DNA of 64,000 nt, taken from the IMG/VR virus record IMGVR_UViG_3300031998_000043. The stretch is one strand, 5' to 3'. Below are positions 1,757 to 61,600 of the stretch, one piece after another. Under the pieces are notes generated by a model that worked only from the letters and a program-made list of their open reading frames with translations, ran no database searches and was not told where the DNA came from. Made by a program: the position numbers and the translations under genes. This stretch comes from a virus (Duplodnaviria; Heunggongvirae; Uroviricota; Caudoviricetes). The stretch's first letter is position 1. Every line of letters starts with the position of its first letter.

Positions 1757-1786
1757 CTCCTATGGACTCCATAGGAGTAATTTTTA
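1757..1786 (+). terminator. rho-independent terminator
   Basis: CTCCTATGGA-C-TCCATAGGAG inverted repeat followed by TAATTTTTA. Confidence 0.5.
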
Positions 1787-1798
1787 CCAGAGGAAAAA

Positions 1799-3607: not shown

Positions 3608-3615
3608 GAGATCTT

Positions 3616-4224
3616 ATGATTATCTTGTCTAACTCATGCTTAGGTGGAAATCTTTATAAGCACTTTCTTAAGTCAGAATATAAATCCGTTTTCGTATGGA
3701 ACGCAATACGTTATATAGACTTTTTTGAAATAGCGTCTAAATTTCCTAATATCGACCTTAGTATTAAGAACTTAGGCATACAAGATGACTCCTTTGCATT
3801 TGTAAGACTTAAGAATGATATGAAGATCTTGTTCACTCATTATCATATCTCAGAAAATTCAGATATAGTACAAGATGGTGAAGATGTATTTAGTAAGGAT
3901 ATTCTGCTTTATACCAAAGCAAAGTACCTATCGAGATACAAGAGAATGGAGGACGCTATCAAACGAAAAGAGGATAAAATCCTCGCATTTCAAGACACTA
4001 TGTTCGAATTTGAACCAAAGAAATATGGGCCAATTTCAGAAAATCTTGTTTTGAAATTATTAGGACTAGAGGGATACAAGAAAAAGATTATTATGACTAG
4101 ATATAAAGCCCTCGAAAAATTAAGCAATGATAATGTTATGATAAAAGGAATAGATGCGCATATTCCGCCTATGACATTTCTTAATGAACATAAAACAGAA
4201 ATAAAAGAATTTTTAAATTGTTAA
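3616..4224 (+). CDS. hypothetical protein
   Basis: 202 aa; starts 9 nt after the Stealth gene stop. Confidence 0.55.
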   Translation: MIILSNSCLGGNLYKHFLKSEYKSVFVWNAIRYIDFFEIASKFPNIDLSIKNLGIQDDSFAFVRLKNDMKILFTHYHISENSDIVQDGEDVFSKDILLYTKAKYLSRYKRMEDAIKRKEDKILAFQDTMFEFEPKKYGPISENLVLKLLGLEGYKKKIIMTRYKALEKLSNDNVMIKGIDAHIPPMTFLNEHKTEIKEFLNC

Positions 4225-4227
4225 AAT

Positions 4228-4260
4228 ATATCTCTAGGATTATCCTAGAGATATTTTTAT
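4228..4260. terminator. bidirectional terminator between convergent genes
   Basis: perfect palindrome ATATCTCTAGGAT-T-ATCCTAGAGATAT followed by TTTTTAT. Confidence 0.6.
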
Positions 4261-34915: not shown

Positions 34916-36757
34916 TTAGTGGATGAACGTTTCCGTCGGGAGGTACGGAGAAGTACCAGCGAAGGAGTAGAAGTTCGCACTGTTGTTGGTGATCGTAACA
35001 CGACCAGCACCCGGAAGCACGTCAACGTAAGCGTAACGGCGAGAGGTGAGGATCGTCGGAACATAGGTATTTCTGGGGCTGTTGTAGCCAGAGCCAGCCT
35101 GTTCCAGCATGAAGCTGTAGGTGTACAGCTTGTAGGTCATCTGATCCTGAACAGTCGGAATGAAGAGCACACGGATGGCACCCTGAGGAATGTTCGGGGA
35201 GGACACAACCTTCCAGCTGTTGATACCCTGATACTGACCGAAGGCAATGTTAGCATTCACGCCAGCATATTCAGCCTGACCGTTGCCCTGGAACACCCAG
35301 TTGATTTCCGGCACGAGGGCGGCATCAAGCGGGTTGCAAGCAGCAACGAAGTAACCCTGTTCGTAATGGTACATGTTGATGATGCTCATGGAGAGGTGGT
35401 CGAGCACCTTGCCAAGCATCTTGGGCCATTCGGCAGGATTGAGCTGGTAGTTACCAACCGGCTTAGCAGAGAATGCACGCACGAAGTCGCCATTCGGAGC
35501 CTGTTCAATAGCGTCGTCGATAACTTCATCCATGAAGTTCACACCGTCCAAGTCCATCTTCTGAGCGAGGAAGCTAGAGAGGATTTCGACGAGCTTGGAG
35601 ACACCGTTCAGAGTGAACATACGGAGCAAGTCCGTGATGTATTCATTCGGAACCGGAGCTTCAAGGTGTTCGCCAGTACCGATGTGGATTTCCTTATCGC
35701 GGATATCGAAACCGACCTGAAGAGTGCTGTTGTTCATGACGGAGGACACGAAGGCCTTGATCATGACCCAATTCAGCTTGTCACCCTGACACATGAGGGT
35801 AAGACGACCGGACTTCACGTCAACGTCACCATACACGGAGTCCGTGAGGGTAACAATGACAGTACCAGCTTCGCCACCAACGCAAGCAGCGTCAACTTCA
35901 ACATCAACAGAGATCACACCCTTGATGCCACCACGACGAGTACCGCATTCGATCTTGCAGTTCTTGACGAGGTCATTAGCAGTGAGGGCTTCACCATTGA
36001 GGGTGAGTTCGGTAGCAAGTTCAGTAGCAACGCCATTGTAGAACACGGTGTCGCCAGCGGCAGGAGCCTTGAACTGAGCGCAAACAATAGAAACGTTCAC
36101 GTCAACTTCATCGTTGTCCTTAACCATAGCAAGAGCATCCACATACTTCTGCGTGACAGAATCAGTGTAGGTAGTCGTGGTCTTGTCATTACCGTATTCG
36201 TCCACGTCCTTACCAGTGAGGAGGTTCATGGAGAAGCAACGGTTCGTGAACTTGAACTTCACATCTTCAGCAAGGCGAACCTTAGAGACAGCGGTATCGA
36301 TGTCCATGAGGTTTTCAGGCACATAGTGCTTGTTGCCCTGAAGATCCTTCAACCACGGATGGAGGTAGTTGATGGTGAATTTCGGCTTTTCGACAGCTTC
36401 GGTCGGGAGAGCCTTGTTCATGGCAGTACGAGCCCAGCTCTTACGGAGCATCGGGGTCTGGAGGAAAGACATCGGAGCCACCGTACCGAGAGCAGCTTCT
36501 TCAAGAGCTTCGAGACGAGAGGATTCAGCGATGGTCTTGAACTGCTCGGCTTCTTCGTCATTAAGACCCTGAGCGAGCATTTCGGTGTAACGACCAAAGA
36601 GGGAGTTGTCAGACATCACATCTTTAAAGTCATCAGCATTGAACACGTTGATGTTGCTAGCGGAGAATTCTTCAGCCACTTCACGAAGAGTAGAGGTAAA
36701 GGAATCACTGCAAGCAGACACCTTCGAGGAGGGTTGCATGTAAGAAATGTTAGACAT
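34916..36757 (-). CDS. highly expressed virion structural protein (major capsid protein candidate)
   Basis: 613 aa; markedly higher GC and biased codon usage than its neighbours; RBS AAGGAAAAAGAAA-ATG; a dedicated terminator; the antisense 649-aa ORF is an artefact. Confidence 0.65.
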   Translation of the reverse strand: MSNISYMQPSSKVSACSDSFTSTLREVAEEFSASNINVFNADDFKDVMSDNSLFGRYTEMLAQGLNDEEAEQFKTIAESSRLEALEEAALGTVAPMSFLQTPMLRKSWARTAMNKALPTEAVEKPKFTINYLHPWLKDLQGNKHYVPENLMDIDTAVSKVRLAEDVKFKFTNRCFSMNLLTGKDVDEYGNDKTTTTYTDSVTQKYVDALAMVKDNDEVDVNVSIVCAQFKAPAAGDTVFYNGVATELATELTLNGEALTANDLVKNCKIECGTRRGGIKGVISVDVEVDAACVGGEAGTVIVTLTDSVYGDVDVKSGRLTLMCQGDKLNWVMIKAFVSSVMNNSTLQVGFDIRDKEIHIGTGEHLEAPVPNEYITDLLRMFTLNGVSKLVEILSSFLAQKMDLDGVNFMDEVIDDAIEQAPNGDFVRAFSAKPVGNYQLNPAEWPKMLGKVLDHLSMSIINMYHYEQGYFVAACNPLDAALVPEINWVFQGNGQAEYAGVNANIAFGQYQGINSWKVVSSPNIPQGAIRVLFIPTVQDQMTYKLYTYSFMLEQAGSGYNSPRNTYVPTILTSRRYAYVDVLPGAGRVTITNNSANFYSFAGTSPYLPTETFIH

Positions 36758-36989
36758 TTTCTTTTTCCTTATATTTTAGGTGAATTTCAGAACCAAAACA
36801 TAATGTTATCTTGGCTCTTAGACAAAATACCTATTTGTGCTAGGATCCTAGGCATTTTCAATGAATAGTTAGATGGGGGTAGAATTTTGCGAGCAAAAAT
36901 TGTAAGTTTTTTGCGTATCTAGATGTGCAACGAAAAGTATTGATTTATCGAATGAACTTTTAATAAATACGATAACCAAGGAGCCCATC

Positions 36990-39324: not shown

Positions 39325-39762
39325 TTACTGAATTGGTCTGTTTCTTAGTTGGCTAATCTTATGCTTATTGATTTCTATCACTGCGTGCTGAATTACATTG
39401 AATTCGCCAGTTACATAAGAAACAAGGTTTTCCATTGTACCTAAATAAATAAGAAGGATTTGTCTGTAAGTGTCAGAAACCTCGGAAATAGTCTCTGTTA
39501 CCAACTTAGCAATATCCATCATGCTCTTTGCAGAGCTTACAATATCAGTTTGGTCACTATTTTTTGCAATAGCAGAAGTAATGGCTACATAGTGCTTTAC
39601 CTTCTTATTAATGATCTCGGACATGAGAGCAAAATCACGCTCCTTGTTCAGACCATACTTCAATAGGTAACTGTTCCTCAGTTTCGCTGCTGCTATTGCT
39701 TGTTTCTTCGCTCTGCGTTTCGCAAAGAAATTCTTTATCCACTTGAACATTGGTTTCTCCAT
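39325..39762 (-). CDS. hypothetical protein
   Basis: 145 aa; overlaps the 3' end of the next gene by 128 nt. Confidence 0.45.
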   Translation of the reverse strand: MEKPMFKWIKNFFAKRRAKKQAIAAAKLRNSYLLKYGLNKERDFALMSEIINKKVKHYVAITSAIAKNSDQTDIVSSAKSMMDIAKLVTETISEVSDTYRQILLIYLGTMENLVSYVTGEFNVIQHAVIEINKHKISQLRNRPIQ

Positions 39763-40438
39763 TTTGGTTAGTTATCTGAGTAATTCGTTCAACATGCCTA
39801 GGCATAATTCTAAGTTTCCTGATATTAGAATTATTTAGGCTTTCAGAAGCTGATGCTTTGACCAAAAAAGAAAGACGCTCTAAGTCCTCTTTAGTCATTA
39901 CATAAGCAAATTTCTTAACAAAGGCTTGCCAGTCTCCAGTTACATTTTTTAGTGAAAGAGTAATAGAACCACTATGAGCCAGTTCATGAGCAGTCAATGA
40001 TAGAGGAATTAAACCAACATGGCCTAGGAAGTGTTCCAATACTACTCTAGATACAATAGCAAAACTAGATACATCTTCATTATTTTCTAGAGCATCATCA
40101 AGAATAATTCTCGTAATGTCAAATAAAGAAAACGGGAAATGATGAATCTCTATTCTACAATCCTCTCTGGAAACTCCAGCGAAGATTGCACAATTATTCA
40201 TTTCTGCATTTTCTTTAAGGAAAGACAAATAGTCACGCAGTTCTAGAGAACCTCTTACAAGTCTTTCAAGATACTTAACATATTTAGCTTTTGCTTTATA
40301 GTCTTCTTTCAGATATGCCAATGTTTCAAACTTGGCATATCCGTCGAATTTATCAGTATCCTTAAAAGTAACCTTAGACGACAACTCGTTAGAAGTCGTG
40401 GTTTGGGTAGGTTGCTCTAAGTCCTTGGGTAATTGCAT
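39635..40438 (-). CDS. hypothetical protein; paralog A of the His-motif pair
   Basis: IEIHHFPFSLFDI ... LSLTAHELAHSG; homologous to 40591..41319. Confidence 0.5.
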   Translation of the reverse strand: MQLPKDLEQPTQTTTSNELSSKVTFKDTDKFDGYAKFETLAYLKEDYKAKAKYVKYLERLVRGSLELRDYLSFLKENAEMNNCAIFAGVSREDCRIEIHHFPFSLFDITRIILDDALENNEDVSSFAIVSRVVLEHFLGHVGLIPLSLTAHELAHSGSITLSLKNVTGDWQAFVKKFAYVMTKEDLERLSFLVKASASESLNNSNIRKLRIMPRHVERITQITNQNGETNVQVDKEFLCETQSEETSNSSSETEEQLPIEVWSEQGA

Positions 40439-40619
40439 ATTTTTCCTGTTTCGTTGGGTTAATGATTGAGATACTACGGGTCTCTGGATTTACCTCAAAA
40501 CCAAATCGTCTGGCGTCTTCTATCATTTTTGGCGTGATTTGTTCTCCAATGAGGCTATAAAGAACTTGTACACGATCCATTAATATTGGATTAATCAGTT
40601 GGAACGGATCCCTCAGCAC
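40389..40619 (-). CDS. hypothetical small protein
   Basis: 76-aa ORF bridging the two paralogs. Confidence 0.3.
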   Translation of the reverse strand: MLRDPFQLINPILMDRVQVLYSLIGEQITPKMIEDARRFGFEVNPETRSISIINPTKQEKYAITQGLRATYPNHDF

Positions 40620-41319
40620 TATTATATCCTACCTTTGGAATCTCTGACGGAGCATAGATATCCTGATGTTTGACTGTTAGAAAAGATTGATCTCTATTCA
40701 TTTTATATCCTTTCTTAGTCATATCAATTAACTTCGAGAAACTTGTGAGAGTCTCCGGCTCAAGGTCTTCCTTATACTCCTTAAAGAACTCCATAAAATG
40801 ACCAGCAACATCAGATAGAGGAATAAATACTTTTCCGCTATGTCTGAGTTGATGAACAGTCTTTGATAGGACAGTAAATCCGATTTTGAGATCGAAATGT
40901 AGTTTCATTACTACTTCGGCTACCATAAATGTATTAAACGGAACATGCTCTCTAATAAATTTACTGGTAACAGCAGAACAGATTTCATACAAGGTAAATG
41001 GATAGTGGTCTACTTCAAGAGTAGCTTCTTCTCCAGTAACCATTCCAAGGATATTACAAGATTGAATTCCAGAACCGCCAAATTCATTATGCACTTTGTA
41101 AATAAAAGTCTTGTATTCATCAGACTGTCTAATCATTTTTTCACAAGACTTAATGAATGTATTATATTCTCTAGAATCTAGAATTTTCTCTCTTTTGAAT
41201 ACTTCTTTAAAATAATCACCAGATACGGCACCATCTTTATGGGTAACATTGATAGGATTTTCAACCTTAATGTTAGCCGAAACAATTTCTTCAATGGGAT
41301 CCATAATATCTCCTTTCAA
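40591..41319 (-). CDS. hypothetical protein; paralog B of the His-motif pair (possible His-Me finger fold)
   Basis: LEVDHYPFTLYEI ... LSKTVHQLRHSG. Confidence 0.55.
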   Translation of the reverse strand: MKGDIMDPIEEIVSANIKVENPINVTHKDGAVSGDYFKEVFKREKILDSREYNTFIKSCEKMIRQSDEYKTFIYKVHNEFGGSGIQSCNILGMVTGEEATLEVDHYPFTLYEICSAVTSKFIREHVPFNTFMVAEVVMKLHFDLKIGFTVLSKTVHQLRHSGKVFIPLSDVAGHFMEFFKEYKEDLEPETLTSFSKLIDMTKKGYKMNRDQSFLTVKHQDIYAPSEIPKVGYNSAEGSVPTD

Positions 41320-43295: not shown

Positions 43296-44366
43296 ATGTA
43301 CTTTGACAAATTTATTGACGGCTCTTATGCCGCCTCTGAAAGCGTTTCGCACATCGATATTCTCACCTCTGCTTTGGAAGGTGCTGAATTCGCTGCTGAT
43401 GCTGAAATTGCTCTCATCGAAGAAGATGGTCGTCTCTGCATGACTGTTGGCGCTGAAGGTATTGGTGACGCTATGGCTGCTGTGGCTGACAAGGCCAAGG
43501 AAGTTGGTACCAAGATCTGGAAGTGGCTTGTCGAATTCGTTCGCAAGGTTCGTGCTTTCGTGTCTCAGGCTATTATCTCCCTTCGTAATGGTGCTATTGT
43601 TAACACCCTTAAGAAGATTATGGCTAAGTCCAAGGCTAAAGCCAAAAACGACGAATGGAAGGAAAATGCTCCGAAGCCGGAACGTGTGACCAAGTGGAAC
43701 GTTGATGTGCAGCGTGCTCTCAATGGTATTTGGTTCATTTCTGATGCTGCTATTGACAAGCTTAAGATGGCTAGTGAGGAGGCCGAGAAAAAGCTGGACA
43801 AAGCTGCCAGCAAGACTACTGCCTTTGGCTCTGATAGAGATTACAATGGTGGCCCAGATGATGATGGAACGTTTAGAGCCATCCTCGCAGAAATTCCCCA
43901 GATCACGGATGAGGAAGGTCACAGACCATACGACAGGCATTGGAACAAGGGCACTACCAAAACCACTAATACCAAGTGGCTAGAACGTGTTGGCAACGAT
44001 GTTGTTGCCCTTTTCAAGCTTGATTCTGAATCCAAAAATGACCAGATCATCGAAAAGGCTGTCAAGATTGCTAATGGTATTATCAATCGCATGAGAAGAG
44101 ATCCTATCATGGAAATTTATAATACCCTAAAGGTTCTTGATACTGAAGTTGATATTGTTAAGAAGCTTTGCTCTGATGCTGGTAAGGATGGTGCTAGAGA
44201 ACTTAAGAAGATCAAGAAGTTCCAGAAGATTATCTCTAAGGTCGGTACCACTTGCACGCTCTTCTGTCGTCGTCAGCTTGGTTCCTACAAGAAGCTCACT
44301 GCTCTTACGATGCGCCTGTTCTCTATGGCTGGTTCTATGGAGAAGGAAGACTATAACGAAGACTAA
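43296..44366 (+). CDS. duplicated Ala/Lys-rich helical protein, copy 1 (highly expressed; possibly a structural or scaffold protein)
   Basis: 356 aa; the N-terminal ~150 aa and C-terminal ~45 aa are near-identical to copy 2; GC-enriched codon usage. Confidence 0.7.
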   Translation: MYFDKFIDGSYAASESVSHIDILTSALEGAEFAADAEIALIEEDGRLCMTVGAEGIGDAMAAVADKAKEVGTKIWKWLVEFVRKVRAFVSQAIISLRNGAIVNTLKKIMAKSKAKAKNDEWKENAPKPERVTKWNVDVQRALNGIWFISDAAIDKLKMASEEAEKKLDKAASKTTAFGSDRDYNGGPDDDGTFRAILAEIPQITDEEGHRPYDRHWNKGTTKTTNTKWLERVGNDVVALFKLDSESKNDQIIEKAVKIANGIINRMRRDPIMEIYNTLKVLDTEVDIVKKLCSDAGKDGARELKKIKKFQKIISKVGTTCTLFCRRQLGSYKKLTALTMRLFSMAGSMEKEDYNED

Positions 44367-44492: not shown

Positions 44493-45569
44493 ATGTACTT
44501 TGATAAATTCCTCGACGGCTCTTACGCCGCCTCTGAAAGCGTTTCGCATATCGACATTCTCACCTCCGCCCTTGAAGGTGCCGAATTTGCCGCTGATGCC
44601 GAAATTGCTTTGATTGAAGAAGATGGTCGTCTTTGCATGACGGTTGGTGCCGAAGGCATTGGTGATGCTATGGCTGCCGTGGCTGATAAAGCCAAGGAAG
44701 TTGGTACCAAGATCTGGAAGTGGCTTGTTGAATTCGTTCGCAAGGTTCGTGCTTTCGTCTCTCAGGCTATCGTTTCTCTTCGCAATGGTGCTATCATTAA
44801 CACCCTCAAGAAGATTATTGCCAAGGGTAAGACCAAGGCTAAGAATGACGAATGGAAGGAAAATGCTCCGAAGCCGGAACGTGTGACCAAGTGGAACGTT
44901 GATGTGCAGCGTGCTCTCAATGGTATTTGGTTCATTTCTCAGGCTGCTGTTGACAAGCTCATGGCTGCAAACTCCAAGCTTGCTAAGAAGGCTGATAAGG
45001 CTGAAGCTAAGACTGCTTCCTTCGGCGCTGACGGTAGAGGTGCCAATCCTGGTGCTACCGATGATGATGGAACGTTCGAAGCCATCCTTGAGGAAATTCC
45101 CAAGATCAAGGATGAAGAAGATCACAATCCCTACAGCAGACATAGCGGACTGGGCGATACCAAGACCACTAATACTAAGTGGCTTGAAAGACTTGGACCC
45201 GAGATGGCTAAGATGTTTAAGCTTGACTCGGAAGAACCCAATGAAAGGATCATCAACAAGGCTTTGAACTTGGCCAATACGACCATCAATAAGATGAAGA
45301 ATGATCCTATCCTTAAGATGTATGATGCACTCAAGGTTCTTGATACCGAAGTTGCTATTGTCAAGAAGCTTTGTGCAGATGCCGGTAAGGATGGCGCTAA
45401 GGAACTCAAGAGAATCAAGAAGTACCAGAAGGCTGTGTCCAAGGTTGGTACGACTTGCACGCTCTTCTGCCGTCGTCAGCTTGGTTCCTACAAGAAGCTC
45501 ACTGCCCTCATTATGCGTCTTTACTCTATGGCTGGTTCTATGGAGAAGGAAGACTATAACGAAGACTAA
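44493..45569 (+). CDS. duplicated Ala/Lys-rich helical protein, copy 2
   Basis: 358 aa; tandem paralog of 43296..44366. Confidence 0.7.
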   Translation: MYFDKFLDGSYAASESVSHIDILTSALEGAEFAADAEIALIEEDGRLCMTVGAEGIGDAMAAVADKAKEVGTKIWKWLVEFVRKVRAFVSQAIVSLRNGAIINTLKKIIAKGKTKAKNDEWKENAPKPERVTKWNVDVQRALNGIWFISQAAVDKLMAANSKLAKKADKAEAKTASFGADGRGANPGATDDDGTFEAILEEIPKIKDEEDHNPYSRHSGLGDTKTTNTKWLERLGPEMAKMFKLDSEEPNERIINKALNLANTTINKMKNDPILKMYDALKVLDTEVAIVKKLCADAGKDGAKELKRIKKYQKAVSKVGTTCTLFCRRQLGSYKKLTALIMRLYSMAGSMEKEDYNED

Positions 45570-46105: not shown

Positions 46106-46864
46106 ATGGAAATTGAAGGATCTAATTTTGATGAAGAAATTAACATTCTTAAATCTGAAATGGGCGAACTAGACAAGCTCTATAAGGACTCTGAAGCGCT
46201 TCTAAAGAATGTTCAGAATTCCAGAAGCCGAGGAAGTTTAGCATTCTCTCATCTTCAGACTGGTAACTTGATTGCCATTAAGAATGCTAAAATCTCTGCC
46301 ATAAAAGGCATAATGACACTTAAGGAAAAGAAGTTCAAGCAGGAAATTCAGCAGAAGCTTATGAATGATGCTGCTAATTCCGGTGGATTCTCTGTCGGAG
46401 AACTTGTTGATATTCTTTCTGCGAATAATGTTTCATTTAATCCTAAGAACTTTACTGAGGCACAAATTGTAGAAAGTGAAGAAGACTTTGAGAAAAAGGT
46501 CAAAGAACAGATTGAGAAATCCAAAGATATTGCTAAGGCTTCTCAGGCTGAAAATGACTCTGCCGATTTTGTTCCAGATGAGTATCAACCTCCCGAACCA
46601 GAAAAAGATCTTTCAATGGTCGCTGTTGAGGATCTTATCGATATTCCTGCCAAGACTGAAGAATATGAGATCGTGGCAGAAGCCAAGACTGGTGTTCTTC
46701 ATGTCATAGACCTTTCTGCTAGCCATGACGATATTATTGTCGAAATGGACAAAGACCTTGTTGGTATTGATGCTGATGAAAAAGCTGAAATGGATTTTTC
46801 CGGTGTCATTCCTAAAGCAAAATTCCGTGGACAAGATATTGAAGTGGTCGAAATCGAGACTTAA
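46106..46864 (+). CDS. hypothetical acidic coiled-coil protein
   Basis: RBS AAAGGAACCAAGT-ATG. Confidence 0.55.
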   Translation: MEIEGSNFDEEINILKSEMGELDKLYKDSEALLKNVQNSRSRGSLAFSHLQTGNLIAIKNAKISAIKGIMTLKEKKFKQEIQQKLMNDAANSGGFSVGELVDILSANNVSFNPKNFTEAQIVESEEDFEKKVKEQIEKSKDIAKASQAENDSADFVPDEYQPPEPEKDLSMVAVEDLIDIPAKTEEYEIVAEAKTGVLHVIDLSASHDDIIVEMDKDLVGIDADEKAEMDFSGVIPKAKFRGQDIEVVEIET

Positions 46865-46938
46865 ATATAATGGTATACTCCGGTATACCATTTTTTAATA
46901 CTCCGAACTTCTAAATGCACGAAAATAGAGAGGAATAT

Positions 46939-48846
46939 ATGAGCCATAAGTACAAACTAGTCTCTGTCAAGAAATTGACAACAAAGACTGATGTTAAGAA
47001 GTATAACAATGGTATTCTAACAGTCTATTATGAAGACGGAGTCAGAAAGTTTGACTTCGATGCAGATCCAACAGTAAGATTTCATGTTTCTAAACCTGAA
47101 TTTGTTGCCAAACATGGTGACAATCCATATGTAGTACCTCTTGAAGAAACAGAAGAGATTGAATGTAAGTATAGAGAAATCTATGAAGCAATCATTGATT
47201 ATCAGGCCACATTTGACCCTGAAGCAGCAGTAAAAAATGTTGCGTTACTTGATAGCTTCAGAAAAAATAAAAAGAATCCTGAGAATTTCTTTTTGTGTCC
47301 TTTTGTTCATGGTGCTGATGTAGAGCTTACCGACCATTATATTCGTAGATTTAATGATGAGAAAGTTGCCCCGAATGGTGGAGAAGACAAAGATGTTCGC
47401 TTGAACAAGGTCTTCTGGGATATCGAATGCGATAACCGTCAGATCAGACGATTTGTGGAAGCTGAAGAAGCTCTGACTCCTATTAACGCTATTTCTTGCT
47501 TTGACAGTAGAACATCTACTCTAGTATTAAGATTTCTTGATGATACCGTTGAAGGACAGTATGTTGAGAAGAATCCACAAATTGATAAATTTAAGTCTCG
47601 TATAGAAGAGATTAGAAGCAAGTATGAAGAGGAATGGAATGCCATTCAGAAGAAAATCTTTAAAGACATAGAGAAACCTCACATTAATGTCGAGATTAAG
47701 TTCTATGGTGAAGAAATTGATTTGATTCAGGATCATTTTAATGACTTGAACTACAGGTTTGCTGCTGACGTTGTTATAGCATTTAACCATGGTTTTGACT
47801 GGGGCTATACAATCAATCGTCTTGATCGTCTTGGATTTGATGCAGGTGATATTATTGCACCTAAAGAATTTCCGAAAGACTATCGTAGAGCCTATTATAT
47901 TGCAGATAAATTTGCAAAGGATATTAAGAAGCGTCACGATGCATTCTATATTCCGGCATTCTATTCTATTATAGACATGCAGCAGAATTATTATGCAATT
48001 CGTAATATGAGTCCTGAAGACTATACTCTTGACTGGTTGGCTGAAAGTGTCATTGGTGTCCGTAAGGTTGAACACGATGATATTGAAATGGCTGACTTCC
48101 CGTATGAGGATTATGAATTGTTCTGTAAGTACTCTGGGCAAGATACTCTAGTCATGTATTGGATCGAACAGAAAGTCAACGATGTCGATACAATCATGCT
48201 GTTTAGAGGTCTGACTCATACTCGTGAGAATAAGGTACTTACCAAGACTACAATGCTTCGTAACTTTATCGAATGGTTCTTCATAAATAAATGTGACCTA
48301 GTTCTATCGAATAACCGTACTAGATTGTTCAATAAGATCTATGACAAGAAGAAAGCCAATGGTGGAAATCCGATTAAGTATCCTGAATTGGAACCTTATC
48401 GAAAAGATGCTATGGCTGCTGACTATACTGAAGTTGGTGAGGATGAAGATGAAGAACTGGTTACTGAGGATCTTGAGGAAGTTGTATCGCAAGTTTCTAA
48501 GATCCAAGAGGAAAAGAAGGTTAAGTTCAAAGGTGCATTTGTAGCTGACCCGAACCTGCTTATCGCTAATGGTATCCAGATTCTTGGCAAAGCCAGTACA
48601 CTGATTTATGACTTTGTTTGTGACTCTGACTTGTCGTCACTATATCCGTCCATTAAGATTGCATGGAACCTCTTTATCACTACTATGCTTGGAAAGATTC
48701 TTCCGAAGAGCAATACGAATGATATTGAGTATTCTGCAACACTTGCCAATTATATCATGACAAGAAATGATATTAAGATCGGTGAGCAGTATTTCGGACT
48801 TCCGTCTCATACTGAATGGACTAAGTTAATTCTCTCTCGTGCATAA
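46939..48846 (+). CDS. family B DNA polymerase, N-terminal part (3'-5' exonuclease domain plus palm motif A); the gene is truncated or split
   Basis: Exo I FWDIECD; Exo II FNHGFDWGY; Exo III YSGQD; pre-A GAFVADP; motif A DLSSLYPS; no motif B or C; ends 70 aa after motif A at a terminator. Confidence 0.75.
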   Translation: MSHKYKLVSVKKLTTKTDVKKYNNGILTVYYEDGVRKFDFDADPTVRFHVSKPEFVAKHGDNPYVVPLEETEEIECKYREIYEAIIDYQATFDPEAAVKNVALLDSFRKNKKNPENFFLCPFVHGADVELTDHYIRRFNDEKVAPNGGEDKDVRLNKVFWDIECDNRQIRRFVEAEEALTPINAISCFDSRTSTLVLRFLDDTVEGQYVEKNPQIDKFKSRIEEIRSKYEEEWNAIQKKIFKDIEKPHINVEIKFYGEEIDLIQDHFNDLNYRFAADVVIAFNHGFDWGYTINRLDRLGFDAGDIIAPKEFPKDYRRAYYIADKFAKDIKKRHDAFYIPAFYSIIDMQQNYYAIRNMSPEDYTLDWLAESVIGVRKVEHDDIEMADFPYEDYELFCKYSGQDTLVMYWIEQKVNDVDTIMLFRGLTHTRENKVLTKTTMLRNFIEWFFINKCDLVLSNNRTRLFNKIYDKKKANGGNPIKYPELEPYRKDAMAADYTEVGEDEDEELVTEDLEEVVSQVSKIQEEKKVKFKGAFVADPNLLIANGIQILGKASTLIYDFVCDSDLSSLYPSIKIAWNLFITTMLGKILPKSNTNDIEYSATLANYIMTRNDIKIGEQYFGLPSHTEWTKLILSRA

Positions 48847-48849
48847 AAG

Positions 48850-48885
48850 TTATCCACTAGGCTTTTGCTTAGTGGATAATTTTAT
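48850..48885 (+). terminator. rho-independent terminator
   Basis: TTATCCACTA-ggcttttgct-TAGTGGATAA followed by TTTTAT. Confidence 0.6.
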
Positions 48886-48918
48886 ATAAAAACTAGCCTT
48901 ATCCTAGGAGAATTTAAA

Positions 48919-49044
48919 ATGGCAACAAAAGAAGAAACCGAAGACGAAGAAGAAAGAAGCTTCAAAGACATCGAAGCTGAAGTTAAAGATAATTTCAAGA
49001 ACGTAATTGACGGAAAATTTGCGGAGGTACTATATGGAGAATAG
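48919..49044 (+). CDS. 41-aa acidic mini-protein
   Basis: RBS TAGGAGAATTTAAA-ATG; MATKEETEDEEERSF. Confidence 0.35.
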   Translation: MATKEETEDEEERSFKDIEAEVKDNFKNVIDGKFAEVLYGE

Positions 49045-49948
49045 CGGAATTGCAGAAGCCGTACATACAATGGAAAGCATCAATCCATCTCCTAATCCAA
49101 CACAGTTTGTTAAGTCTGCTAATCTGTTCAAGTATGTTCTTCGTATGAAGCATAAGATTGCAGAAGAACATATTGACTATGTGGAACTGTGTCTTAACTA
49201 CATTCTTGCAGATGAAAAGCCTGTGAACAACTGTGTGATGTTCACAGACGTTGAAAATGAAATCATGGATCAACCTTTGTGGTACTTTGGTCTCAATCAA
49301 GAAACGCTGATGCCTGAACCGATCGATGTTGATAATATTCCGGATTACCAAACATATGCGCTCATCGTAATCTCTGGTGGCGAGAATGTGTGTATTCCGG
49401 GAAATTGGAGAGACAGTATAGTTTATCCGAGAATCAACAAAAAGAAATTGTTTGCTGGTGTTAAGACTGCAAAGGGTTATAACCCCATCTTCGCAAATGT
49501 TAAGGCTCTCGAAGCTTCTAACTGTGGAAGGCTTACTTTGTTCTATACAAGAGAAGTTCCGTTGATGTTCAACATGGCAGAATGGAATCTTGCACATGGA
49601 ACTTACAAGGATGAAAATGGTGACTTGCACATTAGTCTTGCCAGAGGTCAAGGTCTTATTGTTAAATTTAAGGAATTGATCGATCATCCCGAAAAGTACG
49701 CCAGGTACCTTGTTGAAGGTGAAGACTCGCTTAGTGAACATGATAGGTTCTATATGTCTACTGAAGTGACTTCGAACTCGGAGTATGCCAAGTACAGAAG
49801 ACTTCCCGGTGTTGTCTTGCGTAAGACTTCCAAGGGAAAGCTTTTCCCAACAGTTGAATTGCAATCTATCTGTGAGGGAGAGCCTCTGCCGTATAAGGAA
49901 GAGTCCAGTGAAATGTCTGAATACTGTGTACTGTTAGAGACTGCGTAG
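49034..49948 (+). CDS. hypothetical protein
   Basis: RBS GAGGTACTAT-ATG; overlaps the mini-ORF by 11 nt. Confidence 0.55.
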   Translation: MENSGIAEAVHTMESINPSPNPTQFVKSANLFKYVLRMKHKIAEEHIDYVELCLNYILADEKPVNNCVMFTDVENEIMDQPLWYFGLNQETLMPEPIDVDNIPDYQTYALIVISGGENVCIPGNWRDSIVYPRINKKKLFAGVKTAKGYNPIFANVKALEASNCGRLTLFYTREVPLMFNMAEWNLAHGTYKDENGDLHISLARGQGLIVKFKELIDHPEKYARYLVEGEDSLSEHDRFYMSTEVTSNSEYAKYRRLPGVVLRKTSKGKLFPTVELQSICEGEPLPYKEESSEMSEYCVLLETA

Positions 49949-49966
49949 GGGCGAAATTAGCCCAAA

Positions 49967-50002
49967 GACAGGAGGGTCGTATCCTCTCCTCCTGTCTTTT
50001 TT
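49967..50002 (+). terminator. rho-independent terminator
   Basis: AGACAGGAGG-12 nt loop-CCTCCTGTCT followed by TTTTTTG. Confidence 0.65.
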
Positions 50003-50009
50003 GTATATG
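50001..50009 (+). promoter_or_regulatory. TTGTATATGG promoter-like variant
   Basis: follows the terminator T-run, as in the moron cassettes. Confidence 0.3.
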
Positions 50010-50044
50010 GAACTTTCTAATGAAAAAATTTACAAGAGGCTGAT

Positions 50045-52858
50045 ATGGCAACTGAAGTTGATCCGACTCTCAACACTATAAGTAATGACCAATATGGATT
50101 TATGCAAGCTTTTATGAAGCTTGCAGAAGAGTGTTTTCCGCAAGTTCCAGAGTCTGCCGAAGATACCGTAAAGACTGGTATGTTCGGTTATCTTACTGAA
50201 ATTGCTTCTCATTCTGCAAAGAGCTCTCAGTTCCATAGGGCTATGATGTATAATGAGTTCTTCCTTAATACTGCTATGATGCCGACAACGGTATATAACA
50301 TGGCTGAATCTGAAGGTGTTGAACTTAAGGCTTCAAGACCGGCTTCTTGTACTATTATTATGGAAATTGAAAAGACTAAGTTCCTTAGTCTTATTGATTC
50401 TAACGAAAATGGTTGGCTAGAAATTAACCGTGATTATTTTTTGATCAAACTAGATAATACAGAATTTAGACTTCCATTCTCTTTGATTTTTAGCAGAAAT
50501 GCAAATGGTATAAAAGGATTCTATCGTAGTGTTTCTATCTCTAATGGAGGTAGAACTCTTAGTGCTGAAACACCACTATTTGCTACTGTTTATGATTTTG
50601 CAAACGGATGCTCGATTCCTGTAAAGGAATACTATGATGAGGCTAAGAAAGCTACTATGGTATCTTTCTCCATTCTGGTATTCAATGTAATGTATAGCTA
50701 CTATGAGAATACCTATACAGATGCTTCTAATGCTAGTATTAGTAAATATATGATAGACTTTGAAAATAAGTATGTAGGAGCTACAGCATTTGAGAAATTT
50801 AATGAGAATGATGAATGGCAGCCACTTGAAGTTGTTACATCATCGCTAAAAACAGTAAACGAGTCCTCTCATAGCGTTTATCTGAAACGCCTTGATGCGG
50901 ATACCGTCCTCTTCTACTTTGGGCGTGATGATAGAACTTACATTCCTGTTAACGGAACTAACCTGAAGTTTATTGTTGCCACTACTAATGGCGAAAACGG
51001 TAATTTTACCTTTAAAGGTACTCCAGCTATTAGCATTGATAATGTTGACTATGCGTCTGAATTCTCTTCTTGGGTCTTCTCGTCTCCGGCAGGTGGATCT
51101 GACGAAGATTCTATTATGACGCATAAGAAGGACATCTACACCAATCGCACTAAAGCAAAGCTCCTCGGTTCTGAAAATGACTTGAATGAGTTCTTTGCTA
51201 GTACTTCTGTTGGTAATGAAAAGTCTAAAGTACTTGTATTTAAAAAGCGTGATGATCTCATTAACCGTGAGTTTAATTCTTTCGCTATGCTTTCTGACGA
51301 TACATGTACGTATGAAACCAATACCATACCTATGGTAAAAATTGATAATGCAATTACAGTTGGAGAAGAATGTAAAGCAAAAATTCTTCCATACATGCCT
51401 ATTAAATATACATTTGATGAATATGATGAAACAGATGAAACTGACAAATACTATCTATATGGAGAAGTCATTGATGTAAATGATCCCGTTAATGATGTTA
51501 AGAGTCTTCTTCTCGATCGAAATAAATTCATTTACTTTACTCCATACTCGTACTACATTTATGGAAGTAATACTTCCCTTTACAATGTATATGTCTACGA
51601 TGAGCATATCAGCGAAAACTATTCAGTTTTTATCAAGACCCTAACTTCTGAATCTATAGATACGCCTATTGTTAACTACGTTAAAGCAAATAGAAATCCC
51701 GCTTTGAGCAATCTTATTCATGTGTATACCTATATTACTGAATCTGAAATCAGTAAGAATAGATATTTTCTTATGATTAAAGATAGGGATGAAAATATCA
51801 TAGCTTTTGAGATGAATAAGAATGAATCTGAAGGCTGTTATGAAATTGCTTTATATACAGAAGAGATTAGAGAAGATACTGGTTATAATAGACATAAGAT
51901 GAAAATATCTAGCATTGGCTATGTCATGTACGATACATCTGCCTCCTCTGATGAAGTACCGGAATGGAAGCCAATGGAAGAAGGCGACTGGTTCTTGGAT
52001 ATTAGCGAGGCGTATGTATATTGTCTTGAGCCAATCGATGATAACAATCTTATTCCAGATAACAAAGACTCCTATGAAGTTCTTAGAGGAGCTACAGGTG
52101 TTCTATTTGACTATAGACTGAAATCTATTAGCACTATCACTGGTGGGTTTAAGTTCTTTGAGAATATGAATGACATTCTATCTATTGATCTTAAGCCTGT
52201 TAATAATGACCAAGAAGGTCACAATCTCTATCTAGAAATGATGCCTGTGGTTGGTGGTAGAATGCTATTCTCTAATTCTGTGTATGAAAGTTTCATGGCA
52301 TTGAATAAGAGTGTTATAGATTCTGTTCGTGCAGCAGCAAAGAGACTGCATAACAATACTAAACTGACTTTGAAGTACTTTAATACATATGGGAGAACTA
52401 ACTTCTGGAATGGCCAGATTTTGTCACTTGAAGGTGATGAAGCTTTACCGATCAATCTTAAAAAGCCTAATTTGTTCTATGAGATTATTGTCGATAGACA
52501 AAATGGGTATGATGAAGAGATTGAGAAGAGTATTTCTGCCATTGTTAGAGCATGGACTGAATCCTTATTTGATCTCGTATATAACAATGTTCTTATTACT
52601 GAAAGAATCTCTCTTAGTAACCTTCTCAAAGAACTTGAGACTAAGATTACTGACTGTGACTCTATAAATATTAAGGCTGTTAATGAGATCGAGCACTTAA
52701 AATACATTCTCCCTATCGAAAGATATAGAGAGCTGTTGAATGGTGAAAGCTCCAGTCCTTACTTTGTACCTTCATTCCCGTCAGTTAACCTTGGTGTGTT
52801 GAATGAAAGTCGTGCATTGAAGAAGGAAAACGACATCCTTATTCAGTTCGTTTCGTAA
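50045..52858 (+). CDS. large virion-associated protein (937 aa; portal or structural candidate, function unknown)
   Basis: RBS AAGAGGCTGAT-ATG; long uninterrupted ORF located near the terminase gene. Confidence 0.6.
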   Translation: MATEVDPTLNTISNDQYGFMQAFMKLAEECFPQVPESAEDTVKTGMFGYLTEIASHSAKSSQFHRAMMYNEFFLNTAMMPTTVYNMAESEGVELKASRPASCTIIMEIEKTKFLSLIDSNENGWLEINRDYFLIKLDNTEFRLPFSLIFSRNANGIKGFYRSVSISNGGRTLSAETPLFATVYDFANGCSIPVKEYYDEAKKATMVSFSILVFNVMYSYYENTYTDASNASISKYMIDFENKYVGATAFEKFNENDEWQPLEVVTSSLKTVNESSHSVYLKRLDADTVLFYFGRDDRTYIPVNGTNLKFIVATTNGENGNFTFKGTPAISIDNVDYASEFSSWVFSSPAGGSDEDSIMTHKKDIYTNRTKAKLLGSENDLNEFFASTSVGNEKSKVLVFKKRDDLINREFNSFAMLSDDTCTYETNTIPMVKIDNAITVGEECKAKILPYMPIKYTFDEYDETDETDKYYLYGEVIDVNDPVNDVKSLLLDRNKFIYFTPYSYYIYGSNTSLYNVYVYDEHISENYSVFIKTLTSESIDTPIVNYVKANRNPALSNLIHVYTYITESEISKNRYFLMIKDRDENIIAFEMNKNESEGCYEIALYTEEIREDTGYNRHKMKISSIGYVMYDTSASSDEVPEWKPMEEGDWFLDISEAYVYCLEPIDDNNLIPDNKDSYEVLRGATGVLFDYRLKSISTITGGFKFFENMNDILSIDLKPVNNDQEGHNLYLEMMPVVGGRMLFSNSVYESFMALNKSVIDSVRAAAKRLHNNTKLTLKYFNTYGRTNFWNGQILSLEGDEALPINLKKPNLFYEIIVDRQNGYDEEIEKSISAIVRAWTESLFDLVYNNVLITERISLSNLLKELETKITDCDSINIKAVNEIEHLKYILPIERYRELLNGESSSPYFVPSFPSVNLGVLNESRALKKENDILIQFVS

Positions 52859-58687: not shown

Positions 58688-61600
58688 ATGGCTGCAGATT
58701 CTCTACCGAAATATATGCACCCGCATTCGAGTGCACGTATTATCGATAATGCCGTTCTGACTGTCTCGTCTAGCGGCTTGACTAATATGTTCATTGCCCT
58801 TGAAGCTGAAAAAGGTATGCCGAATGAAGCCACTTATATCACTACTCAGAGTGAGTGGATTTTCAACTTTGGTGAACCTAACTACAGCAAATATGGTCAA
58901 GGTGCTTTGAATGCACTGAATTACATCAACGCCGGTGGTGGTGCTTGGGTGATTCGTGTTGTTCCTGATGATGAAAGATTTGCTTCTCTGTCGCTTGGCA
59001 TTGGCTTCCGCAAAGATCAGGCCTTTACTAACGATCAGGAAAAGTATCGTCGTCTTGAAATGACTTCTGAACAGATCAAGATCTGGAACGCAGCCCAGAC
59101 TGATGAAAATCAGAAGATTGCTATTGATAAGAAGTCTGGTAACTTCGCTATCATGCCTCTCTTCTACATTGAAGAAAATGGTAGCATCAATACGGCTCTC
59201 AAGCTTCAGACGATGGATGAAATTGAGCTCTACAAGCTCAAAAATAAGGATGCTAGCAAGGTTATCAATGCTGTTGCCAAGAAGAACGTGGTGACGTATT
59301 CTAATCCTTACATTGAAGTGTCCGGTGTGTTTGATCTTGGTCTGGAAAATGCTATTCCGACTAAGAAGCATAAGGCTAATCCCGCACAGCCTGAATTCAC
59401 TGAAGATGAACCGATTGAAAACGTTGCCTTCTCCAATCCGACGAATGAAACTTGTGATGCATACATTCGCATTGACAAGTACTTCGTGACTAATGGTGCT
59501 GGTGAAGCCATTATTGAAAATGGTAGAATCGCTACTTTCGATTACTACGATATGGCTAAGACCAAGGCTGCTGCCTACATTGATGACAGCACGGATGAAG
59601 AAGAGGAAGAGGATAAGCCGGAAGATCACATCTTCGCTTACTCTGCCACGATTCGTATCTATGCTAATGCTGCATCTGCTGAAGGTGAATACGGTCAGAT
59701 TATCTTTGATGTCTTGAGTAATCTCTTTGGTGCTGTTGTTGGTGCTGAAGCTCAGACCTTTATCAAGGAGCTGAACGGCAAGGCCAGCTTTGCTGACGGT
59801 ATCTACAATGGCAATAAGCACACTACGAAGTGGTTGCAGGATAACCGTAACGAGTTCTCCAATGCCAGAACCGTTTTCAAGAAAGTGAGACCTGAATCCT
59901 TCTTCGGTGGTGTTGAAAGTGAAGGTCATGTTTCTAGAATCAATACCAAGATTCTTCTCAACATTGGTACTCCTGATTCCTCGACTTGGAGCTACTCCTT
60001 CGAAGTATATAAGGAAGGCCTTGAAGGTCAGTTTATTCCTGTTCAGGCTGCTCTGATTGACAATAATACTGCCTTTACTGAAGTTGAGCTTCTGGAATGG
60101 AATGCCCTCCACGATCTCGACTACAGACTTGGTGGAAAGGCTGATGAAGAATTCCCCGATGAATATGTCATTGGTGAAGGTCAGATCAACCTCGTTAATC
60201 GTGAAGCTACCACTGGTGCTACCAAGAATTCTGTGCTTTACTATGTGAAGTACATCACCAGCAATGAGCCGGTCTACTCGACCTCGATTACGATGGCTGA
60301 GGCTTACAGATTCAATCGTGTTAAGGCTAACTCTGAAGATGAAGTTTGTTCTCTCTCTTCTGAAGCTACCTTTGCACCTACTTCGATGAATACGAAGTAT
60401 GCTAGCCTCCTTAACACTAAGGCTGCTTTCAGTGCAGACGTTAGCACCGATATCCATTGGCAGATCGATCAGGGTAGCATTGAAGATGTCCTGACTCGTG
60501 TTGAAGCTATTGAGTACGTCAATTTCTTCTACAATACTCCGGGTCTGATTTCTCTTGAAGCTCATACCTCTGGTGGTGAAGAACTTGTTGATGTTACAAT
60601 CGATACTTCTGCTGTCATTACGGAAAGTGCATACAATTCCATCAAGGATACTTCCCTCGGTAATCTCTTTGAAAAAGTTAGTGCAGGTGTCGAAGATGAT
60701 GAAGGTGATGAACTGACTGATGAAAATAGCGAAGCCATCACTAACGAAGATTACGAAGAAGGCACTGTTACCTATACTCTTAGGAAGAACATCGAAGCTT
60801 CTGAACTTCCGTTCAGCTTTGTTTCCAAGGTGCTTGTTGGTGGTTGTCTCCAGCCTGTTACTATCAATAACATTCCCGTGACCAAGACTCTGTCTTTGCT
60901 CATCAAGGGAAGAGAGTCTGGTAAGGCTGAACTTGACACTGCCCGTCCTGATGGTAATGCTTATGGCGATCCGTACTACTTCGAATTTGCCAATGCTACA
61001 GTATTGCTCTCTGGTATTGATTCCTTGACTGGTTTCAATGGCACGTTTGCTCTGCACTTTGTTTCTGACTCTATCGAAAACCTTGCTCTCAAGGCTTACG
61101 ATATTGCTGTCATGGATGAAGCTACATCGATCACTGCTAGCCAGATTCCTGGTGAGAAAGTCGCATATGTCAGATTCTATGACAACTTTGATGGTTCTAT
61201 CTTTGAACCTAACTATGACTATATTGAACGCGTCTATGACACTGTTGGTCTTGTAACCACTACGTTCACTTCTTATGAACTTGAAGAGAAGGTCTATTCT
61301 CCCTACACCATCATTGATGGTATCAAGATTAAGAATACTGAAGTATGGAACAACATTGACGAAGCCAAGGAAGGCTATGTCATTGGTGCAGCTCGTGACG
61401 AGATCACCGATGTCGATATTCAGGAAATGAAGCTCGACAAGACCTGCGTCGCTGAGTTCTGTCGTTTCTTGCCTAAGGGTTCCGGTAAGTGGTACAACCG
61501 TCTTGGTGTGTCGCTCTCCTATGACGATAACTATGATGGAACGTATCCGGATTGGAGCATGTTCAAGCTCACTATCTTCGAAAGAAGCAATGGTGAAGAG

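Follow-up and report, generated by a model that had tools for sequence, protein, structure and literature searches.

A phage polymerase gene that ends at the palm-to-fingers junction probably specifies the first subunit of a two-chain, divergent family-B DNA polymerase

The window, i.e., the whole 64,000-nucleotide stretch of viral DNA analyzed here, carries a polymerase gene on its plus strand. The longest open reading frame (ORF) at this locus extends from position 46915 to 48846 and encodes 643 amino acids; counted from the ATG at 46939, the product has 635 residues. The latter is probably the start codon, because GAGAGGA lies ahead of it and no Shine-Dalgarno sequence accompanies 46915; a 99% identical protein (P0001) has the equivalent start and likewise 635 residues. 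All motif residue numbers of the window protein given here count from 46915. The features of the locus are as follows.

46870..46891, plus strand: upstream hairpin ATGGTATAC-tccg-GTATACCAT, then TTTTT; terminator-like end of gene 46106..46864
46939..48846, plus strand: gene for the first half of the polymerase, with the ribosome-binding site GAGAGGA; PHROG, PDB-profile, and Foldseek matches; dN/dS
47413..47433, plus strand: Exo I, FWDIECD (residues 167 to 173); D and E invariant family-wide, aligned to RB69 FDIEV
47785..47808, plus strand: Exo II, NHGFDWGY (residues 291 to 298); N and D invariant, RB69 alignment
48130..48144, plus strand: Exo III, YSGQD (residues 406 to 410); Y and D invariant, RB69 alignment
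48331..48522, plus strand: insert or linker rich in acidic residues (473 to 536, about 64 residues with 18 D/E), specific to the clade of the window
48523..48552, plus strand: pre-motif-A box, KFKGAFVADP (residues 537 to 546), from alignments
48622..48651, plus strand: motif A, DSDLSSLYPS (residues 570 to 579); catalytic Asp equivalent to RB69 D411
48652..48843, plus strand: 64-residue tail past motif A, remainder of the first palm segment; conserved, ending at the family-wide break
48850..48890, plus strand: hairpin resembling an intrinsic terminator, with the T-rich tail TTTTATATAAA; folding energy, conserved in the relative L038

Exo I to Exo III, the pre-motif-A box, and motif A, which the first-pass annotation had reported to be present in this order, were all located, and the alignment with RB69 gp43 agrees with the assignment of Exo I to Exo III and motif A. 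As that annotation had also stated, the ORF terminates shortly past motif A, with a strong terminator behind it. Specifically, the TAA stop codon (48844 to 48846) ends the chain at residue 643, 64 residues past motif A, and a hairpin of the form TTATCCACTAGGC-TTTT-GCTTAGTGGATAA occupies positions 48850 to 48879, followed by TTTTAT, with a folding energy of -21.8 kcal/mol (RNAfold). This hairpin was absent from the output of a simple terminator scan. It is kept in L038; in another relative, L296, the letters of the stem differ yet still pair, and the tail is identical. Downstream of the hairpin, the window shows a fresh ribosome-binding site and the start of another ORF. Within the window, the sequence TTTTATATAAA downstream of the terminator does not recur as a motif, and no promoter is therefore claimed. 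On the upstream side, the hairpin at 46870 to 46891 delimits the polymerase gene as a unit of its own.

The window protein matches PHROG 3011, labeled "DNA polymerase," with an E value of 1.3e-40. A profile comparison with the PDB returned RB69 gp43 (E = 7e-16), with the exonuclease domain (105-339) and motif A (404-434) aligned. The same protein was found by Foldseek with the predicted structure (E = 4e-14, probability 1.0, about 470 columns), a similarity that covers model residues 10 to 470 only. The palm fragment (residues 483 to 643) was predicted with low confidence, and its fold is consequently deduced from sequence alignment only. The acidic insert was likewise predicted with low confidence, and it is missing in the homologs of phages AR9 and phiR1-37. 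In Pfam, PF00136 scored 14.2 bits against a cutoff of 23 and covered motif A only, and PF03104 was not reported; since AR9 g132 passes both PF00136 and PF03104, the subthreshold score is attributed to divergence. tblastn matches with E values down to 2e-36 were obtained in BpSp, AR9, PBS1, phiR1-37, and Staphylococcus jumbo phages. Judged from these comparisons, the similarity of the chain to family-B polymerases is not due to chance.

At E ≤ 1e-30, the family comprises 208 representatives with the same architecture. None of the 150 best representatives exceeds 817 residues, all being stand-alone chains, which are thus the rule. The D-x-D...YP signature of motif A is invariant, phiKZ and EL included, as are the catalytic residues of Exo I to Exo III and motif A throughout the family alignments. 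The neighbors of the gene in the window include those for the large terminase, a 1,432-residue tail-sheath protein, and virion proteins, as well as a 243-residue ORF that matches a PHROG labeled "RNA polymerase beta subunit"; the window yielded no complete gene of a multisubunit RNA polymerase. The contigs of relatives measure 179 to 268 kb. From its sequence similarity, exonuclease residues, motif A, and end point, we assign the window gene to the N-terminal chain of the two-chain, divergent family-B polymerase (PolB) of group-1 (phiKZ/AR9-type) jumbo phages.

The position at which the chain ends is shared by its relatives. Metagenomic relatives with 43 to 99% identity terminate approximately 60 to 70 residues past motif A, and an equivalent end point is found in AR9 g132, phiR1-37 g170, ChrisDB gp60, phiKZ gp82, and EL gp51. 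The stop occupies the same position in independent assemblies (P0001 to P0003, P0005 to P0007, L038, L295, and L296). According to the alignments, the break corresponds to the palm-to-fingers junction, at about RB69 residue 480 and before finger helix N. The comparison with L038 yielded a dN/dS of 0.036 for the whole gene and of 0.014 for the last 53 codons, and the gene is under strong purifying selection. The truncation is real but ordinary for the phiKZ/AR9-type lineage.

The closest described counterparts are consistent with this assignment. The AR9/PBS1 pair g132 and g152 resembles the situation in the window, as the first chain carries Exo I to Exo III and motif A, has the same end, and is separate from its partner: AR9 g132 comprises the exonuclease and a partial catalytic domain, and g152 is the DNA polymerase catalytic subunit. 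The downstream neighborhood in AR9 shares with that of the window an opposite-strand virion-protein homolog and a tail-sheath gene. The first chains share approximately 31% identity, and the partner in AR9 is found 15 kb upstream, oriented like g132, whereas the window contains none within 47 kb upstream. phiR1-37 g170 and g167, the latter a B-family DNA polymerase catalytic subunit, have the same two-gene architecture and end point, with first halves about 28 to 30% identical to that of the window and a partner at a distance of 1.7 kb on the other strand. In phiKZ (gp82), EL (gp51), and Erwinia phage ChrisDB (gp60), exonuclease and polymerase are on separate polypeptides, with DxD...YP and an equivalent end point; the phiKZ-like chains show 16 to 22% identity to the window protein. 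Annotations of AR9, phiR1-37, and BpSp already record the split, and descriptions of it in phiKZ-like phages date back to 2011-2012.

In every relative in which both halves are visible, the second gene encodes the fingers, motif C, and the thumb. Second halves lie 1.7 to 21 kb from the first half, on either strand and in varying arrangements, and many metagenomic contigs bear both. In AR9, BpSp, phiR1-37, and Staphylococcus jumbo phages, they bear the annotation "catalytic subunit"; AR9 g152 and phiR1-37 g167 are examples, with Pfam family PF20286. With respect to the DNA_pol_B profile, AR9 g132 covers positions 45 to 91, the window protein 58 to 93, and AR9 g152 the part from 103 on, plus PF20286 (divDNApol), so that the Pfam coverage of the two halves is complementary. 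Second halves possess invariant residues R110/K114 and K140/N144/G148 (AR9 numbering). Their spacing is that of the RB69 finger residues R482/K486 and K560/N564/G568 (PMC3061061), which places both finger helices on the second chain. A motif A of their own is lacking in the second halves of the AR9-type alignment. A fused protein of 1,270 residues, encoded on one rare contig (L028), contains both halves in order, connected by a linker of about 20 residues, and its sequence equivalent to the tail runs on into the second half. Both AR9 halves carry annotated early promoters.

A region with motifs B and C, the absence of which from the downstream ORFs had been noted in the first-pass annotation, was not detected anywhere in the window by a hidden Markov model (HMM) of 13 second halves in the six-frame ORFs of at least 30 residues, the best E value being 0.75 as compared with about 600 bits for the positive controls. 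tblastn with phiR1-37 g167 and motif patterns gave only chance matches in the window, which takes in 47 kb on the upstream side of the gene and 15 kb on its downstream side. FVFDTDS at 5265 to 5282 on the minus strand, the sole DTDS in the window, was rejected as motif C; it lies within a virion structural protein. In close relatives, the partner was not present within 10 kb on either side in L004, L006, L295, and L296 (of which L004 and L006 were tested with the HMM) or within 3 kb on either side in L038. Scans of viral contigs, metagenomes, and protein databases with profiles, the second halves of L076 and L241 as single proteins, and a degenerate pattern, as well as inspection of contigs that encode P0003, P0007, P0032, P0077, P0119, P0120, and P0131, produced no partner of the clade of the window among the matches listed, which holds also for the scan matches listed for five large IMG/VR contigs of this clade. 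By tetranucleotide signature the clade is cleanly set apart (r = 0.8-1.0), the nearest outsider being L241/L263 (r = 0.82); no shared genes or contigs support a link of the latter to the clade.

Several explanations of the short ORF other than a two-subunit enzyme were considered. The first-pass annotation had allowed for a nonfunctional remnant, i.e., a truncated polB pseudogene that has lost its 3' half, in line with the lack of a second half in the window and with the Pfam DNA_pol_B score below the cutoff. Such decay is very improbable given the low dN/dS of the gene and especially of its tail, the family-wide invariance of the Exo I to Exo III and motif A residues, the architecture shared by the 208 representatives, and an end point, ribosome-binding site, and terminator that are identical or conserved in relatives. 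A frameshift or a sequencing or assembly error that cuts a full-length polB, named in the same annotation as the finding that would overturn it, can practically be dismissed: all that speaks for it is that the chain is shorter than a classical PolB, whereas independent assemblies agree on the position of the stop, the hairpin terminator recurs behind it in L038 and L296 as well as in the window, the window sequence continues with a fresh ribosome-binding site and another ORF, and polB similarity appears in no downstream frame. What held up was the proposal of a genuinely split polB as in some jumbo phages, which agrees with the organization of the phiKZ/AR9-type polymerase family as a whole, with its common end point, its separate catalytic-subunit gene wherever both halves are visible, and its varied arrangements.

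Three further alternatives were considered. An arrangement in which the remaining exons of a single gene lie downstream of a homing-endonuclease cassette or a cis-spliced intron would fit a family that is prone to introns, as seen in the second halves of phiR1-37 and L241 and in an HNH-bearing, intron-like insertion in the N-terminal half of close relatives. Rfam, however, detected no intron in the whole window, and in the region from 46500 to 50200 nothing except the hairpin at both the gathering and permissive E-value thresholds; no HNH, LAGLIDADG, or GIY-YIG gene adjoins the break among the downstream ORFs, no exon with motif B or C occurs within 15 kb downstream, and the break falls where chains end throughout the family, the second gene of relatives lying on either strand and at varied distances. 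This makes cis-splicing hardly credible, and the search for intron, intein, and homing-endonuclease signatures near the break that the first-pass annotation had proposed came back empty with Rfam, Pfam, and PHROG. An ancient mobile-element insertion, mentioned in that annotation as a possible origin of the split, would have left none of these at the break in the window. Joining of the halves by a split intein, i.e., protein trans-splicing, or by RNA trans-splicing would have a precedent in the split-intein "fractured genes" with homing endonucleases described for metagenomes (PMC2677866). It is nevertheless highly unlikely here, since the 64-residue tail is homologous to contiguous L028 sequence and to the AR9, phiR1-37, and phiKZ tails, and the N termini of second halves align to the subsequent L028 sequence; both being native polymerase sequence, no room is left for intein halves, and no match to intein families was obtained. 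Finally, the chain might act alone as a proofreading exonuclease in a clade whose canonical second half has been lost or substituted, which would agree with the lack of the clade's second half among the matches listed. We regard this as unlikely, because motif A and the tail, useless without a palm partner, are the most constrained part of the gene, and second halves in the AR9-type alignment have no motif A.

The reading we prefer, at a probability of about 0.88, is a divergent, replicative family-B DNA polymerase made of two subunits, one encoded by this gene and the other by a partner gene elsewhere in the genome. The first chain consists of an N-terminal domain and the 3'-5' proofreading exonuclease, followed by the first part of the palm, in which motif A supplies one catalytic aspartate. 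The second, encoded by a separate gene that this phage presumably carries outside the window, would contribute both finger helices (motif B), the thumb, and, with motif C (DTDS), the remainder of the palm. The two chains would associate noncovalently, so that the polymerase active site would be built from both. That they form one enzyme is suggested by analogy with the split PolBs of T4-like phages, Methanothermobacter thermautotrophicus, and engineered Pfu. phiKZ has been described as having a "split subunit DNA polymerase" (Thomas et al. 2016, PMC5105663), and in phiKZ-like phages exonuclease and polymerase activities are assigned to separate chains (Kazlauskas and Venclovas 2011, PMC3201878; Iyer et al. 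2021, PMC7824862). Work on M. thermautotrophicus PolB, RM378 PolB, and split Pfu indicates that a two-chain PolB is tolerated, with genes up to 85 kb apart; split Pfu is fully active, and folding of its C fragment needs the N fragment (PMC3061061). The break points of these proteins are located in the palm after the fingers (M. thermautotrophicus), between the N-terminal and palm domains (RM378), and in finger helix αO (Pfu) (PMC3061061).

The parallel with T4-like phages drawn in the first-pass annotation is apt as a functional analogy and fails as to the site of the split. In T4-related Aeromonas and Acinetobacter phages, gp43A and gp43B are two separately translated chains that copurify and are active, and the gene is associated with a homing-endonuclease gene and a group I intron (Petrov et al. 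2006, 2010, summarized in PMC2988022 and PMC3061061). As described there, the split lies within the tip of the fingers and separates the two finger helices, with cistrons 2 bp to 3 kb apart (PMC3061061). In contrast, the window polymerase is interrupted ahead of the fingers, with no linkage between the two genes, and it differs from the T4-related forms in lineage and in split event. Membership in the gp43A/gp43B class is ruled out by the location of the R482/K486 equivalents on the second chain and by the lack of a partner within 15 kb downstream and 47 kb upstream.

In the 2011 model of Kazlauskas and Venclovas, the first chain is a 3'-5' exonuclease, and both catalytic aspartates reside on the polymerase chain (PMC3201878). 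The alignments of the present analysis differ in placing motif A on the first chain. We lean slightly toward the view that in all group-1 jumbo phages, phiKZ and EL included, the motif A aspartate belongs to the "exonuclease" chain and motif C to the other, which would amount to a composite site and to a palm/fingers break unreported for characterized natural split PolBs. If so, neither chain alone could polymerize. For annotation, the ORF is better named "DNA polymerase, exonuclease/motif A subunit" than pseudogene or truncated polymerase, and the genome is expected to hold an unlinked catalytic-subunit gene. The family exemplifies how far a replicase can be dismantled, its active site apparently being shared by two unlinked genes. 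The pairing of the chains and their activity in isolation are of interest for the whole family rather than for the window locus in particular.

Both genes of the family have been targets of mobile elements. The window has an empty site at 48538/48539, in the codon for Phe542, where relatives carry a 792-nucleotide insertion that contains group-I-intron-like sequence and encodes an HNH/AP2 endonuclease. Group I introns are found in the second halves of phiR1-37, where one interrupts the coding sequence between g167 and g164, and of L241. Group I introns and HNH endonucleases have invaded both genes repeatedly, and at their most conserved motifs.

The family B DNA polymerase motifs lie in an ORF whose longest form encodes 643 residues, although the ATG at position 46939 is likelier than position 46915 to be the true start, judging from the sequence GAGAGGA that precedes it. 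It is also the start used in P0001, a metagenomic relative of 99% identity, and that placed by the first-pass annotation. The five motifs listed in that annotation are all present in canonical order (residues counted from 46915), and the protein does end early, with only 64 residues between motif A and its end. The elements concerned are as follows.

46870-46891: hairpin terminator of the upstream gene
46915-48846, plus strand: polymerase ORF (longest form), 643 aa
aa 167-173: Exo I, FWDIECD
aa 291-298: Exo II, NHGFDWGY
aa 406-410: Exo III, YSGQD
aa 540-546: pre-motif-A box, GAFVADP
aa 572-579: motif A, DLSSLYPS
48844-48846, plus strand: stop codon of the polymerase ORF

Directly 3' of the stop codon, a hairpin (48850-48879; folding energy, -21.8 kcal/mol) followed by a T-rich tail bears out the strong terminator previously proposed there; it was not among the output of a simple terminator scan. 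As terminators are found at both ends, the polymerase gene forms a self-contained unit. An acidic insert of approximately 64 residues, 18 of them D or E (window 48331-48522; aa 473-536), separates the exonuclease domain from the pre-motif-A box; it occurs only in the window's clade and is missing from the AR9 and phiR1-37 homologs.

The assignment to the polymerases is far beyond chance. PHROG 3011 ("DNA polymerase") matched the protein with an E value of 1.3e-40, and the family profile matched RB69 gp43 (E = 7e-16) in two blocks, namely, the exonuclease domain (RB69 105-339) and motif A (RB69 404-434), with D572 of the window protein aligned to the catalytic D411. The predicted structure, which is confident for residues ~10 to 470, superposes on RB69 gp43 with an E value of 4e-14. 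Pfam PF00136 sees motif A only, scoring 14.2 bits (cut-off, 23). AlphaFold confidence is low for residues 483 to 643, which would fit a palm fragment needing its partner and could equally reflect a shallow alignment.

The closest cultured relatives, with 22 to 33% identity, are the Bacillus phages AR9, PBS1, and BpSp, Yersinia phage phiR1-37, and Staphylococcus jumbo phages, whose records already annotate two polymerase genes each. In AR9, g132 is noted as [quoted passage not shown] and g152, at a distance of 15 kb, as "DNA-polymerase catalytic subunit"; in phiR1-37, g170 and g167 are 1.7 kb apart on opposite strands; BpSp has gp207/206 (first half) and gp217, and the two genes of Staphylococcus phage MarsHill are 21 kb apart. 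Alignments of the window protein with its homologs revealed a common chain end ~60 to 70 residues past motif A, which is shared by the full-length metagenomic relatives (P0001 to P0003 and P0005 to P0007, 43 to 99% identity; P0004 and P0008 are shortened by an insertion), by AR9 g132 and phiR1-37 g170, and, further out, by Erwinia phage ChrisDB gp60 (L301 1213-2991), phiKZ gp82 (L337 253-2169), and EL gp51 (L338 280-2085), all three with the motif A signature. The two-gene layout and this common end agree with the split polymerase, completed by a separate second gene, that the first-pass annotation favored. Pfam coverage of the two halves is complementary: AR9 g132 and the window protein cover DNA_pol_B profile positions 45 to 91 and 58 to 93, respectively, and AR9 g152 matches from position 103 onward, in addition to PF20286 ("divergent family B DNA polymerase"). 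In the second halves, R110/K114 and K140/N144/G148 are invariant, with the same spacing as R482/K486 and K560/N564/G568 of RB69, whose roles have been described (PMC3061061). Both finger helices therefore reside on the second chain, which places the break at the palm-to-fingers junction, near RB69 residue 480.

A single 1,270-residue ORF in one metagenomic contig (L028, IMGVR_UViG_3300025530_000275, 1135-4944) contains both halves fused, the tail of the first half being followed by a linker of ~20 residues and then directly by second-half sequence. The two genes are therefore consecutive parts of one enzyme, and the tail after motif A is native polymerase sequence and not an intein. Such fusion is rare; when 1.84 billion representative proteins were searched exhaustively with a profile (208 hits at E ≤ 1e-30), the best 150 hits were all at most 817 residues long, and the full-length ones were nearly all of 540 to 690 residues.

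That the gene might be a nonfunctional remnant, as the first-pass annotation had alternatively proposed, is contradicted by several observations. Against L038, a locus 89% identical, dN/dS was 0.036 for the gene as a whole and 0.014 in the 53 codons that follow motif A, with similar values against locus L296. The stop position is kept among relatives, as is the terminator hairpin (window 48850-48890, L038 4935-4975, and L296 11922-11965); in L296, the stem differs in sequence yet still pairs and is followed by the same AATTTTATATAAA tail. All catalytic residues of the exonuclease and motif A are invariant family-wide. On these sequence grounds, the gene is judged to be functional. The AATTTTATATAAA tail might also serve the downstream gene as a signal, but the window contains no further copy of this motif. 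Truncation of the gene through a frameshift or a sequencing error, previously named as the case that would overturn a split, is excluded, because polymerase similarity is lacking in every frame past the stop codon and a new ribosome-binding site and ORF start at 48919.

Intron or homing endonuclease signatures near the break, suggested earlier as a check, were not detected: Rfam found no intron in the window, even when the cut-off was relaxed near the 3' end of the gene, and no ORF downstream of the polymerase gene matched an endonuclease. The polymerase family as such is a frequent target of mobile elements. In the genomes of P0004 and P0008 (83% and 45% identity), the first half is interrupted exactly at the conserved KGA-F-VADP codon, a site that is empty and uninterrupted in the window (48538/48539). 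The element (L039 4610-5401, L043 ~4474-5429, L004 11736-12266, and L006 11705-12310) measures 792 nt in L039, carries an HNH_3 plus AP2 endonuclease ORF, and gave sub-threshold Rfam group I intron matches of 28 and 26 bits. In phiR1-37, g167 and g164 are separated by a genuine group I intron (L026 3906-4305; Rfam, 63 bits). The record lists them as distinct genes and annotates tiny ORFs in the interval; g167 contains motifs B and C and g164, a 244-residue ORF, the KKxY/thumb part, so that they look like two exons of a single catalytic-subunit gene. In L241 (5214-5590, minus strand), and likewise in L263, a group I intron that lacks an ORF (Rfam, 66 bits) is inserted within second-half motif B (...LLAKIDMN / intron / VYGTFG...). 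The BpSp first half is annotated as two CDS (L002 5875-6831 and 7112-7888) with a 280-nt gap, in which Rfam at the gathering threshold found no intron; the gap could be an unrecognized intron, a frameshift, or a genuine extra split. In an unrelated jumbo-phage contig (L302 9366-11293), the second-half gene appears in three fragments, the middle one (P0131) being called on the opposite strand and overlapping a minus-strand fragment, which may reflect a rearrangement or a gene-calling artefact.

The absence of motifs B and C from the window, noted before, was confirmed in six frames. The bona fide second half phiR1-37 g167 (KILANSYYG, SDTDS) gave no tblastn match in the window, and an HMM built on 13 diverse second halves (positive controls, ~600 bits) reached a best E value of 0.75 against all window ORFs of at least 30 residues; the sole DTDS (5265-5282, minus strand) lies within a virion structural protein. 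If present, the partner is located >47 kb upstream or >15 kb downstream of the gene. It was not within 10 kb of the first half in the relatives L004, L006, L295, and L296, and no second half of the window's clade was among the matches listed in pattern scans of contigs, part of which gave other clades, or in word-filtered protein database searches. The tetranucleotide signature unites this clade cleanly (r = 0.8 to 1.0), the nearest outside locus being L241/L263 (r = 0.82), for which no gene-level link to the clade was found.

Most likely, the window chain supplies proofreading together with the palm strand that bears motif A, an unlinked partner contributes the fingers, the hairpin of motif C, and the thumb, and the two would join noncovalently into one replicase. 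This assembly is inferred from the consecutive polymerase parts, from the early promoters of the same type preceding AR9 g132 and g152, and from precedent: the gp43A/B halves of T4-like phages copurify and are active (PMC2988022), and split Pfu polymerase is fully active, its C-terminal fragment folding only with the N-terminal one (PMC3061061). The two-chain architecture is already documented, as a "split subunit DNA polymerase" of phiKZ (PMC5105663), as exonuclease and polymerase functions divided between two polypeptides in phiKZ-like phages (PMC3201878), and as group 1 jumbo-phage polymerases without a fused exonuclease, which is encoded elsewhere (PMC7824862). Unlike the palm-to-fingers break described here, the T4-like polymerase is divided within the finger tip, that of M. 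thermautotrophicus in the palm after the fingers, and that of RM378 between the N-terminal and palm domains (PMC3061061). Whereas both catalytic aspartates were assigned to the polymerase chain in 2011 (PMC3201878), in our alignments the "exonuclease" chains, including those of phiKZ and EL, bear a clear motif A (DxD...YP). The window gene adds an uncultured lineage to a kind of split polymerase already described.

Elsewhere in the window, tandem paralogs of 356 and 358 residues (43296-44366 and 44493-45569, plus strand) are near-identical over the first ~95 residues and again near the C terminus, with a diverged middle, and a second tandem pair (39635-40438 and 40591-41319, minus strand) matches PHROG 12252. 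Long ORFs occupy both strands at 34916-36757 (minus) and 34919-36868 (plus), the plus-strand ORF having no family match in the search of that strand. The ORF at 58703-62710 (minus), antisense to a tail-sheath gene, is probably a compositional artefact. The tail-sheath homolog itself (58688-62986, plus strand) is unusually large, with 1,432 residues; the sheath PHROG matched three stretches of it, the top-scoring one comprising only the C-terminal ~285 residues.
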